A stretch of 64,000 bases of DNA from Candidatus Poribacteria bacterium (GTDB lineage Bacteria; Poribacteria; WGA-4E; WGA-3G): NCBI GenBank assembly GCA_965215265.1, contig OZ244048.1, positions 4,736,001-4,800,000 on the forward strand. Reading direction: 5' to 3'. The position numbers and the translations under genes are program-made. The notes beneath the pieces were generated by a model, which was not told where the DNA came from, searched no databases, and saw nothing but the letters and a program-made list of their open reading frames with translations. Positions 11,024-16,202 of the stretch are shown here, piece by piece (positions within the stretch are counted from its first letter, which is position 1; every line of letters begins with the position of its first letter).

Positions 11024-12232
11024 CTAACTGCTCTCTTCAGGAATCACGAGCCGCGTCCGCCCCGTCAGGAGCTCCTGCATCATCGCCTTTTTGATGTCGC
11101 GTATCTTCTCAACCTGTTTCTCCAGTGCAGCTAGCTCCCCATCCATATCGGAGAGGATAGTAACAATAGCTTTTTGTTCCAATACACTCGGGGCAATGAA
11201 GTAAAAGTTTGCCATGTCACGACCATACAAATGAAACACTGTTGTACCTGCCACCAGTTTCATCACCTGATTACGGTTCATTTTTATCGAGTATGCGAGA
11301 AAGGTGCCATTGAGAATCTGCTCCGGGACACGTATAACCAGAATGTCCCCGCCAAGGATAACATCAGGCACGGAGATACAACTTGCTGTCGCAAGCCCAT
11401 TAGGCGTAACATCGGATGCTGGCATAAGGACATCATTAGAGCAAGAAAGCAAAAAGACATCTTCTCTATTCGTGCGATGTAGGACTTCAGTGATACATTC
11501 CTTGTATGTTGTAAACAACTCCCCATAGTGAATACATGGTCTTTTGCCATCAAGAGATAGATCTGTTTTCAACAAACTGCTCGTCCCTTTAAAAAATGAT
11601 GCGATATCCCCTAATCGCTTCGTCTGCCACTCGTCTGTGAACCCCGGCAGTCGCGTTTTACCCGTCAGCAGTTGCTGCATCGCCGCGAGTTTTATCGCCT
11701 GCTTCTTTGCAATCAGCGCCTCCAACGAGTTGATGAGTCCATCCACATCCGATAAGACTTCCGCGATGGCAGCTTGTTCTTTTATATTTTCAGGAAAACG
11801 AACAACCATCCCACGGAATTTTGGCAGGCTTATGACATACCGCGTTCCACTCCCATCACACTCTCTGCTGGCTTGATCGAGGAATCCCTTCGTGTCAAAA
11901 ACATAAGCACGAAAGCGAAGGTCCCAATTCGTTTTCAAACGCAACCGGATAACGTGATAACTATAAACACCATCCGGAATATCCTCCATTGCTACCGCAC
12001 AGCGACCTATATCTTCACGTATCTCCGAGGAGGGCGTGAAGAAAATATCACCCTTTTCAACTGCAAAGCGCCGAACCTGATCCGGTTTCGCTGTAACATA
12101 GTGCGTCAAATCTTTTGAATACAAAAAGGTCTTGTTGTAGACATCAAGATAGTTCACAAGCCGGACAGGCAACTCATCACGACTCACTTTTTTGTTAACT
12201 CCAGTTCCTGTTATGTCACCAATTTCCCCCAA
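11024..12232 (-). CDS. hsdS: Type I R-M specificity subunit (start uncertain; frame open up to 12325)
   Basis: Two TRDs and conserved helices EQAAIAEVLSDVD...MQQLLTGKTRLPGF and EQKAIVTILSDMD...MMQELLTGRTRL. Confidence 0.9.
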   Translation of the reverse strand: MGEIGDITGTGVNKKVSRDELPVRLVNYLDVYNKTFLYSKDLTHYVTAKPDQVRRFAVEKGDIFFTPSSEIREDIGRCAVAMEDIPDGVYSYHVIRLRLKTNWDLRFRAYVFDTKGFLDQASRECDGSGTRYVISLPKFRGMVVRFPENIKEQAAIAEVLSDVDGLINSLEALIAKKQAIKLAAMQQLLTGKTRLPGFTDEWQTKRLGDIASFFKGTSSLLKTDLSLDGKRPCIHYGELFTTYKECITEVLHRTNREDVFLLSCSNDVLMPASDVTPNGLATASCISVPDVILGGDILVIRVPEQILNGTFLAYSIKMNRNQVMKLVAGTTVFHLYGRDMANFYFIAPSVLEQKAIVTILSDMDGELAALEKQVEKIRDIKKAMMQELLTGRTRLVIPEESS

Positions 12233-12248
12233 TCGCTTCGTCTGCCAC
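11613..12248. repeat. Identical 18-bp direct repeat AATCGCTTCGTCTGCCAC at 11613-11630 and 12231-12248, at the start of each TRD
   Basis: Both copies encode WQTKRL on the minus strand. Confidence 0.8.
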
Positions 12249-12325
12249 GCCCCGCTGAACCGCTTTGGGGAGGGCTTGAAATCACGCGAACTGTCCGACT
12301 CACACGGAGCTTGGGTTGTGTTTGC

Positions 12326-14875
12326 TCATATCCCTGTCCACTCTATCCCCATATTTTTCAGATGCACTTCCAGCTGCGCGCTGAACGCTGACACTTTGAC
12401 GGCTAATTCTCGCAACGGCATCGCATAACGCCCCGCCAACCCCTGCACACTCCCCGTCAACGCTTGCGTCACCCCTTCTATTTCCGCCTCAATCGCCCCA
12501 TGGATACTGGCTAACCACTTCCCTTCCACTACCAACGTCTTAATCTCTATTTCGCGCAGCTCCGCATACTTCCCAAGCACCGAAACCGCCAGCGCCTCTG
12601 ATGTCTCTTTCTGCAGCCGCTGCAGGCGCGTCTCCTCCCCTATCAGCTGCAGATACTCATAAAGAACGTCCAATTCCGCAAACAGACACCCGGCATCCTT
12701 CACGCCCTTCGTCCAGGCGCAAGCACCGAAACTCGCTTTCTTAATCGCTTTCGCCTGTTCAGACTCAGCAGTGCCTTCAGCAAACTCCCTCAAAATAATG
12801 TCCCTATACTCCATCACGCGCTGTAGCACATTCCCCTTGCTTATGCCTCGCGCCCCTTCAAGCCCAGCCAGCGCACCACCCTCTGCGGCGTGTTCCTCAA
12901 CGAACGCCTCAACTTCCTGCGCTGCCCTTTCATGCGACGCTTGGAGGCACTCTATAGCCGCCTGCTCATCCGAAAAGTAGCGTGCAACAATCAGACCCGG
13001 CGGTATCAGATCCAGCTTATATTTCTTGCGCTTGACGACGAGGTCCGGTGCCTCCTTGATCCGCTTATCCTGAATCAGCGCGCGCGGTTTCACCCCTTCA
13101 CGCCACCCCTCGGCAGCGATAAGATACACATCGTCCTGCATCACCGCTTCCCAATAATCCATCAATCCTTGGTAGACATCATACGCATCCAGCAGCGGCG
13201 CGTCTGCAAAGTACGTCAGTAAATCCGCAGACAACGCATCAATTACCGCTTTAGGCGATGTCCCTACCTCAATGCCAAACAGACGCCGCGTGTGAACCTC
13301 ACGCCAAGCGTGAAAACACCTCTCAACCCCCCGCCGGTAAACTTCTAACTCATGATGTCCTACTATCGTGCTTTTCACTTCTTCTGCTTCCACGCGCACA
13401 TCGCTATAGCCCGGCCGGATGCCACTCTCAAACAACTCCTCACGTAATGTCGGGAATACCTTCCAATACCCCTCCAAGCTGGCAAGCTCACTCTCAGGAA
13501 TCCCACCGTTCAGGTGGGCATCCAAGTCATGCAAATCTTCCGCCTCGCTCGCATCTAGATAGCGCGGGATGTTCAGATTGTAGGCGTTCGCGGCACTCGC
13601 AATCTCAGACACGGGCACCAGCCGCGCATAACCCGCCATCTCCCGCTGTTCGGTGAACACCCTCACTATTTTATCAATATCTCGCGCACGCAGCCTATTC
13701 TTGTTACCCGCCTTCAGGAACCCCCGGCTCGCATCTATCAGGAAGATGCCACGGCGCGCAGGCGCCTTCTCCTTGTCAATAACCAGAATACACGCGGGAA
13801 TGCCGGTACCGTAGAACAGATTCGCAGGCAACCCGATTATCCCCTTGATGAACCCACGCTTGACCAACGCTTTCCGAATCTCCCCTTCTCTATTCCCTCT
13901 AAACAACACGCCATGCGGCAAGATTATCGCCCCCTTCCCGTTGCTCTTCAACGAGGCGAGGAAATGGAGCAGAAAAGCATAATCTCCATTCTTCGCAGGC
14001 GGCACTCCATACGCAAAACGGCCATAAGCGTCATGCACAGGATTCAGCCCGTTTGACCACGCTTTGTCCGAGAACGGCGGATTCGCAACCGCAAAATCGA
14101 ACGTCTTCAAACCATGCTCCGCGTTCAGAAAGTAGGGCGCGGAGAGCGTGTTACCATGCCAGAGCTCCGCCGTCGCCGTATCGTGCAAAATCATGTTCAT
14201 CCTGGCCAGCGCGTAAGTCGCATGATCCTTCTCTTGTCCGTAAACCGACAACCCCCGCGGCGCCTCCGCATTTGCCCTCAGCAACAGAGACCCGGAGCCA
14301 CACGCTGGATCATAGACAGTCCTATATTGGGGCGTGTCTGGGCCGATGCCGATAACTTTTGCCACTACGCGCGACACTTCCGCAGGGGTGTAGAATTGTC
14401 CCTTACTCTTCCCTGACTCCGTCGCGAAATGCCGCATCAAATACTCATACGCGTCACCCAGCAGATCCTCAGCCGATGCCCTATGCCCCCGTAAATCAAG
14501 CCCCTCAAAAATAGAAACCAGTTTCGAGAGCCGGTCCTGCATCTCTTTCCCTCTGCCCAGTTTGCTCTCATCGTTAAAATCCGCCTGATCTATCACACCT
14601 TTCAGTTCATTGGCGTCTGCCAGTCTTCCGATGATTTTATTGATTTTGTCACCGATGTCTTTGTTCCCCTTCAACTTCACCATATCGGAGAACCCCCCGC
14701 CAGGGGGAACCACAATCAGCGTCGCATCCCCAGGCACTGCCGCCTTATCCGACACAGACTTCAGGAAAAGCAGTGTCAGCACATAGTCTTTGTATTGTGA
14801 TGCGTCCATCCCACCGCGCAGCTCATCGCAGCTCGCCCATAGAGACGCGTAAAGTTGTGATTTCTTTATTCCCAT
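12326..14875 (-). CDS. hsdM: Type I R-M methyltransferase subunit (long form)
   Basis: LWASCDELRGGMDASQYKDY, GQFYTPAEVS, YDPACGSGSLL, ANPPFS, LPHGVLFRG, YNLNIPRY. Confidence 0.96.
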   Translation of the reverse strand: MGIKKSQLYASLWASCDELRGGMDASQYKDYVLTLLFLKSVSDKAAVPGDATLIVVPPGGGFSDMVKLKGNKDIGDKINKIIGRLADANELKGVIDQADFNDESKLGRGKEMQDRLSKLVSIFEGLDLRGHRASAEDLLGDAYEYLMRHFATESGKSKGQFYTPAEVSRVVAKVIGIGPDTPQYRTVYDPACGSGSLLLRANAEAPRGLSVYGQEKDHATYALARMNMILHDTATAELWHGNTLSAPYFLNAEHGLKTFDFAVANPPFSDKAWSNGLNPVHDAYGRFAYGVPPAKNGDYAFLLHFLASLKSNGKGAIILPHGVLFRGNREGEIRKALVKRGFIKGIIGLPANLFYGTGIPACILVIDKEKAPARRGIFLIDASRGFLKAGNKNRLRARDIDKIVRVFTEQREMAGYARLVPVSEIASAANAYNLNIPRYLDASEAEDLHDLDAHLNGGIPESELASLEGYWKVFPTLREELFESGIRPGYSDVRVEAEEVKSTIVGHHELEVYRRGVERCFHAWREVHTRRLFGIEVGTSPKAVIDALSADLLTYFADAPLLDAYDVYQGLMDYWEAVMQDDVYLIAAEGWREGVKPRALIQDKRIKEAPDLVVKRKKYKLDLIPPGLIVARYFSDEQAAIECLQASHERAAQEVEAFVEEHAAEGGALAGLEGARGISKGNVLQRVMEYRDIILREFAEGTAESEQAKAIKKASFGACAWTKGVKDAGCLFAELDVLYEYLQLIGEETRLQRLQKETSEALAVSVLGKYAELREIEIKTLVVEGKWLASIHGAIEAEIEGVTQALTGSVQGLAGRYAMPLRELAVKVSAFSAQLEVHLKNMGIEWTGI

Positions 14876-14925
14876 ATCTCAATGCCTATCCTTACTGGAT
14901 GCTTTGACCTGATTACAAGCAATTC

Positions 14926-15056
14926 TTCAATTGTTCGCCGGTTTTCGATGTCTGCCTTTCCTTGAATCAATGGCAGTCCCTCGGCGTGTTGGTTGGTGAC
15001 AGTCCCATCATAATAGCAGCAAGGTGACTAAGCGTTTTTTCAGTCCACTCGTCGCT
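14926..15056 (-). pseudogene. Frameshifted fragment of a different hsdS TRD N-terminus
   Basis: SDEWTEKTLSHLAAIMMGLSP / EGLPLIQGKADIENRRTIE in two frames, resembling HsdS 'W...L..I.MGQSP...GLPLIQGNADI'. Confidence 0.65.
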
Positions 15057-15057
15057 G

Positions 15058-15350
15058 GTTTCGATTTCAAATTGGTTCGATTAAAAGATTGAATGGAGAG
15101 AATTCTCAATCGTAGTGAACGGAGTTTTGATTCCAAATTGATTCGATTAAAAGTAGGTTAGCACCTTATACAACACAGAGGATTCTTTGTTTTAATTCCA
15201 AATTGGTTCGATTAAACGTCTAAAACTGATATATACAGTATACCACATCCTTATGCCGCTTGTCAAGGTAATTTTTATATTTTTTTTACATTTCCAAATT
15301 GGTTCGATTAAAAGCGGCCCACCCGCCCAAATCCTTGGTTTTGATTCCAA
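15058..15350 (-). CRISPR. Degenerate cas-less CRISPR mini-array: four 30-bp repeats plus one partial repeat
   Basis: Repeats at 15058-15087, 15124-15153, 15189-15218, 15285-15314 and partial 15338-15350; consensus (+) GTTTTRATTCCAAATTGGTTCGATTAAAAG; spacers 36, 35, 66 and 23 nt; minus-strand 3' end AT(T/C)(A/G)AAAC resembles type I-B/III ATTGAAAC. Confidence 0.85.
15237..15266 (-). promoter_or_regulatory. Sigma70 promoter inside the CRISPR array, facing hsdM
   Basis: Minus strand TTGACA-18nt-TATACT with extended -10 TG and A-rich UP-like region. Confidence 0.75.
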
Positions 15351-15359
15351 GGAAGTAAC

Positions 15360-16202
15360 CTATGTATCCATCTTCCCAAGGCTTGCAGGTGCGCGCGATT
15401 TTCCGACAAGTCCGGCGAGTACGACCATGGTTAAAATATAAGGTAAACTCTCTAACAACTGTGTTGGGATCTGCCATCGGTTCGCCAGTTTTAACGCTGC
15501 AGCAAATCCAAAGAGAAAACACGCGGCGATGCCGCGGAGCGGGTGCCAATTCCCAAAAATTACAGCTGCAAGTGCGACATAACCGCGCCCAGCCGTCATA
15601 CCTTTTGTGAAGTAGTGAACCTCAGAAACGAGGAAACAGCCGCCGACTGCGGCAAAGATACCGCTGCAGATAACAGCAAAATATTGCCATCGAGCACGGC
15701 TCAGACTAAGCGTCGCGAGTGCCTCCGTCGATTCGCCTGCAGCTTGCAACCGCAACCCCCATGGCGTTTTAAAAAGCAGAACGTGACTTATAACCATCAA
15801 AACCGGCATCAAATAGACAAGAAAGTTGTACGAACCGATAAAAGGAAATTGCCAATAGGGAAGCCCACTGACGCGCCCGGAAGTAGGTAAGATAAACTCT
15901 GTAATACCCAACGCCAAAATGTTAATCGCAATCCCGCTAACGATCTGCTCCGCATGAAATGTAACAGAGGCGACAGCGTGTAACAACCCTAATGCCGCAC
16001 CGAAACAGAGGCCCACCATTAAACCACACCACGGTGAACCGAAGCCCTGGGTGCCGATAACGTAACCAAACGCACCGATGAGCATCATGCCTTCTAGGGC
16101 GATGTTAATCACGCCAGAACGTTCAGAGTAAATACCGCCAAGCGCAGCAAATCCCAGGGGTGTTGACATCCGCAGTGTCATTGGAATTAATTCAAGAATC
16201 AT
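15360..16202 (-). CDS. ABC transporter permease (nucleoside/simple sugar type)
   Basis: ALGGIYSERSGVINIALEGMML, TPWGLRLQAAGE, GMTAGRGYVALAAVIFGNW. Confidence 0.92.
   Translation of the reverse strand: MILELIPMTLRMSTPLGFAALGGIYSERSGVINIALEGMMLIGAFGYVIGTQGFGSPWCGLMVGLCFGAALGLLHAVASVTFHAEQIVSGIAINILALGITEFILPTSGRVSGLPYWQFPFIGSYNFLVYLMPVLMVISHVLLFKTPWGLRLQAAGESTEALATLSLSRARWQYFAVICSGIFAAVGGCFLVSEVHYFTKGMTAGRGYVALAAVIFGNWHPLRGIAACFLFGFAAALKLANRWQIPTQLLESLPYILTMVVLAGLVGKSRAPASLGKMDT

Follow-up and report, generated by a model that had tools for sequence, protein, structure and literature searches.

The Listeria RliB locus is a short chromosomal CRISPR array without neighbouring cas genes, which yields RNA. 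It is transcribed, is processed by polynucleotide phosphorylase (PNPase), and is conserved across strains without cas. Other arrays are served in trans, and the parts of the literature that deal with arrays of this kind describe an isolated array in Pseudomonas aeruginosa (PMC13142298) and type I-B arrays in Leptospira (PMC9372919). CreA/CreR units, as portions of two preprints portray them, lie in or beside the cas locus and carry a spacer that is partly complementary, in a 5′-anchored fashion, to a promoter-proximal site; the known spacers partially match a cas or toxin promoter next to a protospacer adjacent motif (PAM) (bioRxiv 10.1101/2023.03.10.532045, 10.1101/2023.03.03.530964). Among restriction-modification systems, the relevant portion of a report on Sau1 of Staphylococcus aureus describes one hsdR with several dispersed hsdMS pairs (PMC4373697). 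The locus compared with these systems here is a CRISPR mini-array upstream of an hsdM-hsdS pair, within a 64,000-nucleotide (nt) stretch of the genome of a Candidatus Poribacteria bacterium (the window, i.e., C1:4736001-4800000 of a single 4.83-Mb contig). Positions are window coordinates, with the array read on the minus strand; the prefix C1 denotes coordinates of the genome contig.

The original prediction, made from the window alone, took this locus for a possible device in which a promoter embedded in a spacer drives an HsdR-less hsdMS pair and couples its expression to a CRISPR-Cas system encoded elsewhere. At the scale of the genome, the mini-array is a fairly ordinary genomic relic and not a new regulatory device. 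The reading that we favour, with a probability of roughly three in four, is that of a decaying orphan (secondary) array of the organism's own type I-B/III-A system, which has kept its leader and which a rearrangement placed next to a duplicated copy of the hsdMS cassette. A decayed array had in fact been named as the fallback explanation, and it fits best, with its diverged repeats, its frozen content and its copy of the main leader. The supposed device is ordinary because its promoter is that of a standard leader, because cas genes and hsdR are present elsewhere, and because the layout is not conserved. The main value of the analysis is thus corrective: what looked special in the window alone proves ordinary in the context of the whole genome.

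A cognate CRISPR-Cas system, which had been supposed to exist in trans, was found in a composite cas locus at C1:506800-524100. This locus contains cas6 (C1:506998-507597); its type III-A part comprises cas10/csm1, csm2, csm3, csm4, csm5 and a TM1812-like gene, and its type I-B part comprises cas8b1, cas7, cas5, cas3, cas4, cas1 and cas2. Between the two modules are a 420-bp intergenic region with degenerate repeats and then a 140-residue open reading frame (ORF) without a family match. Directly after cas2 come a leader and an array of 170 repeats (C1:524246-535573), with spacers of 33-40 nt; 169 of the 170 repeats have one and the same sequence, from which the last repeat deviates at its final base. 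The window repeats are two to five substitutions away from the 30-nt consensus of this cas-adjacent array, which places them in the same family. Because this 30-mer is found 170 times within a single array of the genome, we take the window repeats to be genuine CRISPR repeats and not chance resemblances, although the Rfam model CRISPR-DR2 matches only two of them, and weakly (with 26.9 and 23.3 bits, where the gathering score is 37).

Searching the whole genome with Cas1 and Cas6 models gave matches only near 0.51-0.52 Mb and 1.47 Mb and none in the window, so that the earlier description of a mini-array with no cas gene nearby holds for Cas1 and Cas6, the only two families scanned. If the 4.83-Mb contig is circular, some 0.6 Mb separate the mini-array from the cas locus. 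The Cas6 encoded there in trans should recognise the repeat family of the window.

The order of elements on the minus strand was as originally described, both on reading the strand and in a repeat search, in which the four copies were spaced 66, 65 and 96 nt apart. The flanking gene, encoding an ATP-binding cassette (ABC)-type permease (BPD_transp_2; 15360-16202, minus strand), ends in a stop codon at 15360-15362. After a gap of 9 nt (12 nt including the stop codon) there follows the 13-nt tail of a truncated CRISPR repeat (15338-15350), whose full-length counterpart is at C1:3923503-3923532. Next come a short spacer of 23 nt (the 23-mer; 15315-15337) and the repeat R4 (15285-15314), of which the first 23 nt are repeat sequence, while the last 7 nt have been replaced by sequence homologous, in a leader alignment made by eye, to the 5′ edge of the main leader. 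An A-rich stretch of 66 nt, the copy of the leader (15219-15284), is followed by the leader-proximal repeat R3 (15189-15218), spacer S2 (15154-15188), R2 (15124-15153), spacer S3 (15088-15123) and the last repeat, R1 (15058-15087). As expected for an orphan array, R3, R2 and R1 are 30 nt long each, and the spacers between them are 35 nt (S2) and 36 nt (S3).

From the end of R1 to the ATG of hsdM (14875) is a distance of 182 nt, which comprises a 135-nt stretch that is unique in the genome (14923-15057) and a final 47 nt (14876-14922) that are 85-87% identical to both hsdM paralogs. The 135-nt stretch had been called an hsdS fragment. In a single comparison it showed 7 identities over 20 residues with residues 199-218 of paralogous HsdS (E = 0.001), i.e., with the start of the second target-recognition domain (TRD), but it had no Pfam match and no other copy in the genome. 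It is broken by a stop codon and a change of frame, and we regard it, tentatively, as the probable remnant of a TRD start. Taken together, the elements read as two array fragments side by side, one consisting of truncated repeat-23 nt-truncated repeat and the other of the leader, three repeats and two spacers. Four junctions fall within about 500 bp: the end of the permease gene meets the truncated repeat, the truncated repeat meets the leader, R1 meets the hsdS remnant, and the remnant meets the 5′ region of hsdM.

The 66-nt stretch ahead of R3 agrees at 61 of 66 positions (92.4%) with the sequence immediately preceding the main array. Two further copies in the genome, at C1:4319782-4319847 and C1:24053-24110, show 90.9% and 88.3% identity to it, respectively. 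Within it are a TTGACA hexamer (15266-15261), 18 nt, and a TATACT hexamer (15242-15237) preceded by TG, together matching the consensus at 11 of 12 positions; all four leader copies have the same −35 hexamer, TG and −10 hexamer. A near-consensus promoter is therefore present about 12 nt ahead of R3 and points to hsdM, as originally predicted, but the notion that it is embedded in a spacer has to be abandoned, since what the stretch copies is the genome's normal CRISPR leader. Judged by the main locus, the direction from leader to hsdM is the true transcriptional orientation of the mini-array, because that locus runs from cas genes through leader and array to a degenerate last repeat at its far end.

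The leader motif had a single match in genome contigs (L042), which proved to be an unrelated promoter before a small gene and not a CRISPR leader. The leader copy at C1:4319418-4319847 (minus strand) has about 130 nt of additional upstream homology to the main leader, and it precedes six copies of a different, 29-nt repeat that is absent elsewhere in the genome.

Unlike those of the homogeneous main array, the window repeats all differ from one another. Compared with the consensus, R3 carries four substitutions, R2 three, R1 two (with the consensus 3′ handle kept) and R4 five, the last all at its 3′ end. Seven further orphan mini-arrays or solitary repeats were found near 24, 935, 2273, 3923, 4318 and 4463 kb and, as degenerate units, at 515 kb, so that the genome contains eight scattered orphan loci including that in the window.

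The content of the array was compared across contigs from four public sequencing runs, each belonging to a different study. One contig (X6 record 13) covers 14847-15700, with three other letters and one gap; a second (X5 record 3) covers 14876-15279 without differences; a third (X9 record 26) covers 14848-15217, with two other letters; and a fourth (X8 record 21) covers 15156-15700. There were no extra or different spacers over the parts of the array covered by these contigs, and the junction between array and hsdM was present in samples of other studies. Because the content is the same wherever it is covered, and because the repeats have diverged, the array looks frozen, with no sign of ongoing spacer acquisition. 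A genome of the same genus (G001) has no copy of the repeat core and no hsdM of this type; its best permease match is only 42% identical and its DUF1326 neighbour lies elsewhere, and no "empty site" could be reconstructed from it. A motif from the end of the permease gene had no matches in metagenome and genome contigs, a collection from which records of the organism's own genome were possibly excluded.

Spacer S2 has a near-match in the same genome at C1:798956-798985 (E = 0.001; of 30 aligned columns, 28 match, one is a mismatch and one a gap) and another in a genome of the same family but a different genus (G072, L036:3024-3053; 30 of 31 columns, one gap). The intergenic elements in which the two sites sit can be aligned with each other and contain an inverted repeat (hairpin); in the organism's own genome, the element lies between two minus-strand ORFs. 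No target was found for S3: its best match in the same genome was 14 nt long, its first 22 nt had no exact matches in viral contigs, and among the matches listed for 158 other genomes of the order there was none to it, a weak match below about 45 bits being one that could lie outside the matches listed in this 159-genome search. With the whole S3-R2-S2 stretch as the query against 50,697 phage records, matches were obtained only at E = 3.

The 23-mer is a member of a dispersed intergenic repeat family. Its 21-nt core occurs at 33 sites in the genome with three or fewer mismatches, i.e., at 31 sites other than itself and a paralogous unit, and exact matches reach 17-19 nt (e.g., 19 nt at C1:566156-566174). 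The paralogous unit is a full-length repeat-23 nt-repeat arrangement at C1:3923450-3923532, with its 23-nt part at C1:3923480-3923502. The 23-mer may be a shortened spacer once taken from the dispersed family, of which the relevant part of the query is present in about 23-50 copies and the neighbouring part in about 220. The genome as a whole is crowded with dispersed intergenic repeats: with C1:928325-928900 as the query, one part of about 100 nt had about 220 copies and others about 50-60. Rfam searches of the dispersed-repeat loci and of the S2-like element gave nothing near the gathering score.

The genes downstream of the array, hsdM (849 residues; 12326-14875, minus strand) and hsdS (402 residues; 11024-12232, minus strand), are intact open frames. 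HsdM matches PF02384 (N6_Mtase, 1.6e-99), PF12161 (HsdM_N, 1.2e-15) and TIGR00497 (273.8 bits, above the cut-off). HsdS matches PF01420 (Methylase_S) in two stretches, representing two TRDs, and its central and C-terminal regions are conserved in the alignment. Three copies of this hsdM are present in the genome, with 99-100% protein identity, in the window, at about 0.83 Mb and at about 3.82 Mb. The three hsdM-hsdS cassettes (window 11024-14875, L023:8703-12488 and L024:9869-13735) share about 3.3 kb of DNA that is 99.5-99.9% identical (for the window and the 0.83-Mb copy, 3299 bp at 99.9%). Homology to the paralogs starts 30 nt before the ATG according to BLAST, with a weaker match extending to 47 nt. 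All three HsdS proteins have the same sequence over residues 1-202 and share the C-terminal region; TRD1 and the central region are identical, whereas TRD2 differs. The three type I specificities should have one half-site in common, because the proteins share TRD1 and differ only in TRD2.

Beside the 0.83-Mb copy are an hsdR gene (1054 residues; TIGR00348, 530.5 bits) and a YgjP-like gene, and among the three cassettes hsdR was found near this copy only. The description of the window pair as HsdR-less is thus true locally but not for the genome, in which hsdR lies about 2.3 kb from an hsdM whose protein is 100% identical to that of the window. Judged by these matches, the window pair adds a further specificity module to a type I system that is complete, and would use HsdR in trans. 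The arrangement resembles Sau1, to the extent that the Sau1 report covers these features, in that there is one hsdR with this type of hsdM, together with further hsdMS operons in which hsdM is conserved and hsdS variable. It differs from Sau1 in that there are three pairs here, with the first half of HsdS identical and only TRD2 different; in that HsdM has a C-terminal extension of about 400 residues without a family match; and in that, for one pair, a CRISPR leader stands where the pair's own promoter would be. The HsdM region without a Pfam or NCBIfam match extends over residues ~450-849 (12326-13525), and relatives match HsdM over residues 1-690 or 1-847.

Upstream of the window hsdM, the promoter sequence of the paralogs is missing, and the unique 135 nt are found instead. 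The 0.83-Mb hsdM has a TTGATT-17-TATAAT promoter with TG (10 of 12 consensus positions) that ends 156 nt before the ATG, and the 3.82-Mb hsdM a TTGACT-18-TATAAT promoter (11 of 12) that ends 94 nt before it. In simple consensus scans for promoters and terminators, the leader promoter, 362 nt before the ATG, was the only strong promoter-like site upstream of the window hsdM on the right strand. The stretch from this promoter to the ATG contained no terminator-like and no second promoter-like site, in agreement with the earlier description, and its RNA fold was unremarkable (z = −0.17). Since the leader promoter is the sole strong site upstream, and since nothing resembling a terminator separates it from the genes, transcription may reasonably be expected to read through into hsdMS, at about even odds.

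We propose the following course of events. Rearrangements at or near CRISPR repeats would have joined the array fragments to the end of the permease gene on one side and, on the other, to the hsdS remnant and the duplicated hsdM-hsdS cassette. The leader copy retains its near-consensus promoter, pointing at R3. This promoter would fire and give a transcript through R3-S2-R2-S3-R1, the repeats of which would be cut by the Cas6 encoded at C1:506998-507597 to release up to two CRISPR RNAs (crRNAs) with variant 5′ handles. These could load I-B or III-A effectors. The array is probably still transcribed and perhaps gives rise to two crRNAs, and new spacers would no longer be added to it. The window hsdM would have lost the promoter of its paralogs, and the transcript would continue into hsdM-hsdS as a by-product of the rearrangement, the pair then using the HsdR encoded beside the 0.83-Mb paralog. 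A stronger version, in which hsdMS, otherwise promoter-less, has the leader promoter as its working promoter, and in which the mRNA starts as a pre-crRNA and is freed by a Cas6 cut at the last repeat, seems to us doubtful. If it were true, one of three type I specificities would depend on the activity of a CRISPR leader and on Cas6, and adaptive and innate defence would be linked both physically and in their regulation. Were hsdMS transcribed from the leader promoter and its message trimmed by Cas6, this would provide a simple documented link from CRISPR transcription to restriction-modification specificity. The locus is also a clean natural test case for promoter capture.

Several considerations weigh against this course of events. 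Promoter activity, cutting by Cas6 and read-through are all predictions from the sequence. A weak or non-sigma-70 promoter of hsdM, or a Rho-dependent stop, would escape consensus scans. There is no terminator-like site past the last repeat of the main array either, so that its absence here is not special, whereas a leader-bearing orphan array at 24 kb does carry a terminator-like site about 14 nt past its last repeat. The variant repeats, whose handles are off at one or two positions, may no longer be substrates of Cas6. The near-identity of the hsdM copies could be due to gene conversion and not to recent arrival, so that either the array or the cassette could be the older. Finally, the junction occurs in other samples; it is thus no private assembly accident, and it could be under selection.

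Selection would underlie the coupling originally suggested, in which the hsdMS mRNA is deliberately transcribed from the leader promoter and carries Cas6 sites in its 5′ leader, so that the output of methylase and specificity subunit would follow transcription of the array and the activity of Cas6, and in which two guide RNAs are yielded as well. Such a coupling could draw on the position of the leader promoter, which has no strong rival upstream of the genes and is not separated from them by a terminator-like site; on the fact that both paralogs have a promoter of their own that is absent from the window copy; on the intact hsdM and hsdS frames, identical or near-identical to those of the paralogs; on the presence of the junction in contigs of other studies; and on a genome that encodes the cognate Cas6. 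However, the layout of array and hsdM was absent from all 11 related hsdM loci, none of which carried the repeat in their 1.5-kb flanks even with up to nine substitutions allowed, and it was absent from both paralogs in the same genome. The repeats are decaying and not conserved, and the broken hsdS remnant between R1 and hsdM, like the four junctions in about 500 bp, looks accidental. Read-through is no evidence of design, because the main array is also without a terminator-like site, because of the four junctions, and because of the absence of the layout from the 11 related loci and both paralogs. We consider selected coupling unlikely. RNA decoys of the CRISPR type are known from phages, and a set of cas-less repeats with a strong promoter might in principle act as an RNA anti-CRISPR, soaking up Cas6 or effector subunits and thereby damping the host system, maybe as a leftover of a mobile element. 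The neighbours of the mini-array, however, are ABC permeases, DUF1326, PhyH and hsdMS, with no phage or mobile-element genes in the flanks; the repeat core had no exact matches in the viral contig collection; and the leader is the host's own. This explanation is extremely improbable.

Another possibility is a role of the CreA/CreR kind, in which the 23-mer unit, or RNA from S2 or S3, would guide a I-B or III-A effector to bind a partial match, in a promoter or in the dispersed family, without cutting. The likeness to CreA/CreR (types I-B, I-E and V-A) and to the mini-arrays of Shmakov et al., as far as these sources describe them, lies in degenerate or truncated repeats round a short spacer in a I-B host. 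The 23-nt spacer is unusually short compared with the 33-40 nt of the main array, its unit has a second copy at C1:3923450-3923532, its core matches 31 other sites, S2 has its near-match in an intergenic element, and the genome has a candidate device of this very kind at its cas locus (C1:515200-515570). However, the window unit is neither in nor beside the cas locus, being some 0.6 Mb away if the contig is circular; it has no promoter match and is not conserved; and its upstream repeat is cut to 13 nt, with no promoter before it except by read-through from the permease gene. The three spacers were compared with the 19-kb cas locus and with the regions upstream of the three hsdM copies and of hsdR; their best 5′-anchored 14-nt matches were no better than those of 200 shuffled spacers (all p ≥ 0.25), apart from a lone borderline value obtained when the 23-mer was set against the leader of its own locus (9 of 14, p = 0.055). 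A related resemblance of the 23-mer to the spacer region of the leader promoter (9 of 10) was judged meaningless, in view of this p value and of the far better matches to the dispersed family. Among 60 further genomes of the family, 2 contained a motif spanning the repeat-spacer junction when two mismatches were allowed, compared with 9 for the reversed control, i.e., at the level of chance. A CreA/CreR-like role is very unlikely, and nothing in the sequence of this locus demonstrates either selected coupling or a regulatory crRNA.

The decaying orphan array that we favour resembles known secondary arrays served in trans in that it has the repeat family of the cas-adjacent array, a leader and promoter of its own, and Cas6 and effectors encoded elsewhere. 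It differs from them in having only three repeats, all of them diverged, in the truncated fragment fused upstream of its leader, and in abutting a promoter-less hsdMS. RliB is likewise short, chromosomal and without neighbouring cas genes, but the genome of the window, in contrast, encodes a cognate Cas6 and two effector modules. The locus illustrates how CRISPR repeats and leaders have been scattered and recombined in this genome, where the orphan loci number eight and where, of four copies of the leader, one stands before a different repeat family.

Additional observations were made on the CRISPR-Cas components of the genome. The Csm2 ORF (237 residues; C1:510191-510904) has an N-terminal cold-shock-like domain at residues 49-111 (CspE model, 9.1e-14), with the Csm2 domain proper at residues 153-234. 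A second Cas1, in a 548-residue open frame, and a second Cas6 are encoded at C1:1468624-1470940, about 1 Mb from the main cas locus. In the main array, spacer 96 matches the organism's own genome at 36 of 37 nt (C1:623045-623081) and spacer 11 at 28 of 28 nt (C1:3910679-3910706), in both cases in palindromic repeated sequence; these are possible self-targets. Matches of main-array spacers to the genome were found only at this palindromic repeated element, and they yielded no I-B PAM.

Between the III-A and I-B modules, at C1:515200-515570, are five degenerate repeat-like units with a TTGACA-17-TATAAT promoter of their own. In a 33-nt pseudo-spacer among them, 15 of the first 17 nt match a site directly after the −10 box of the next promoter, a degree of matching reached by none of 500 shuffled spacers. 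The target is preceded by CCA and lies ahead of the 140-residue ORF without a family match, which is followed by cas8b1. From their sequence, these units are a good candidate for a CreA/CreR-like element.

The orphan array at C1:23953-24110 consists of a leader copy and two repeats, and its terminator-like site, about 14 nt past the last repeat, is a hairpin. Its single spacer has many periodically spaced sites in the same genome, with one to three mismatches over 23-25 nt, for example at 974.5-976.1 kb, 2493.6-2494.3 kb and 4189.9-4191.5 kb; this spacer looks as if it were directed against a repeated coding motif.

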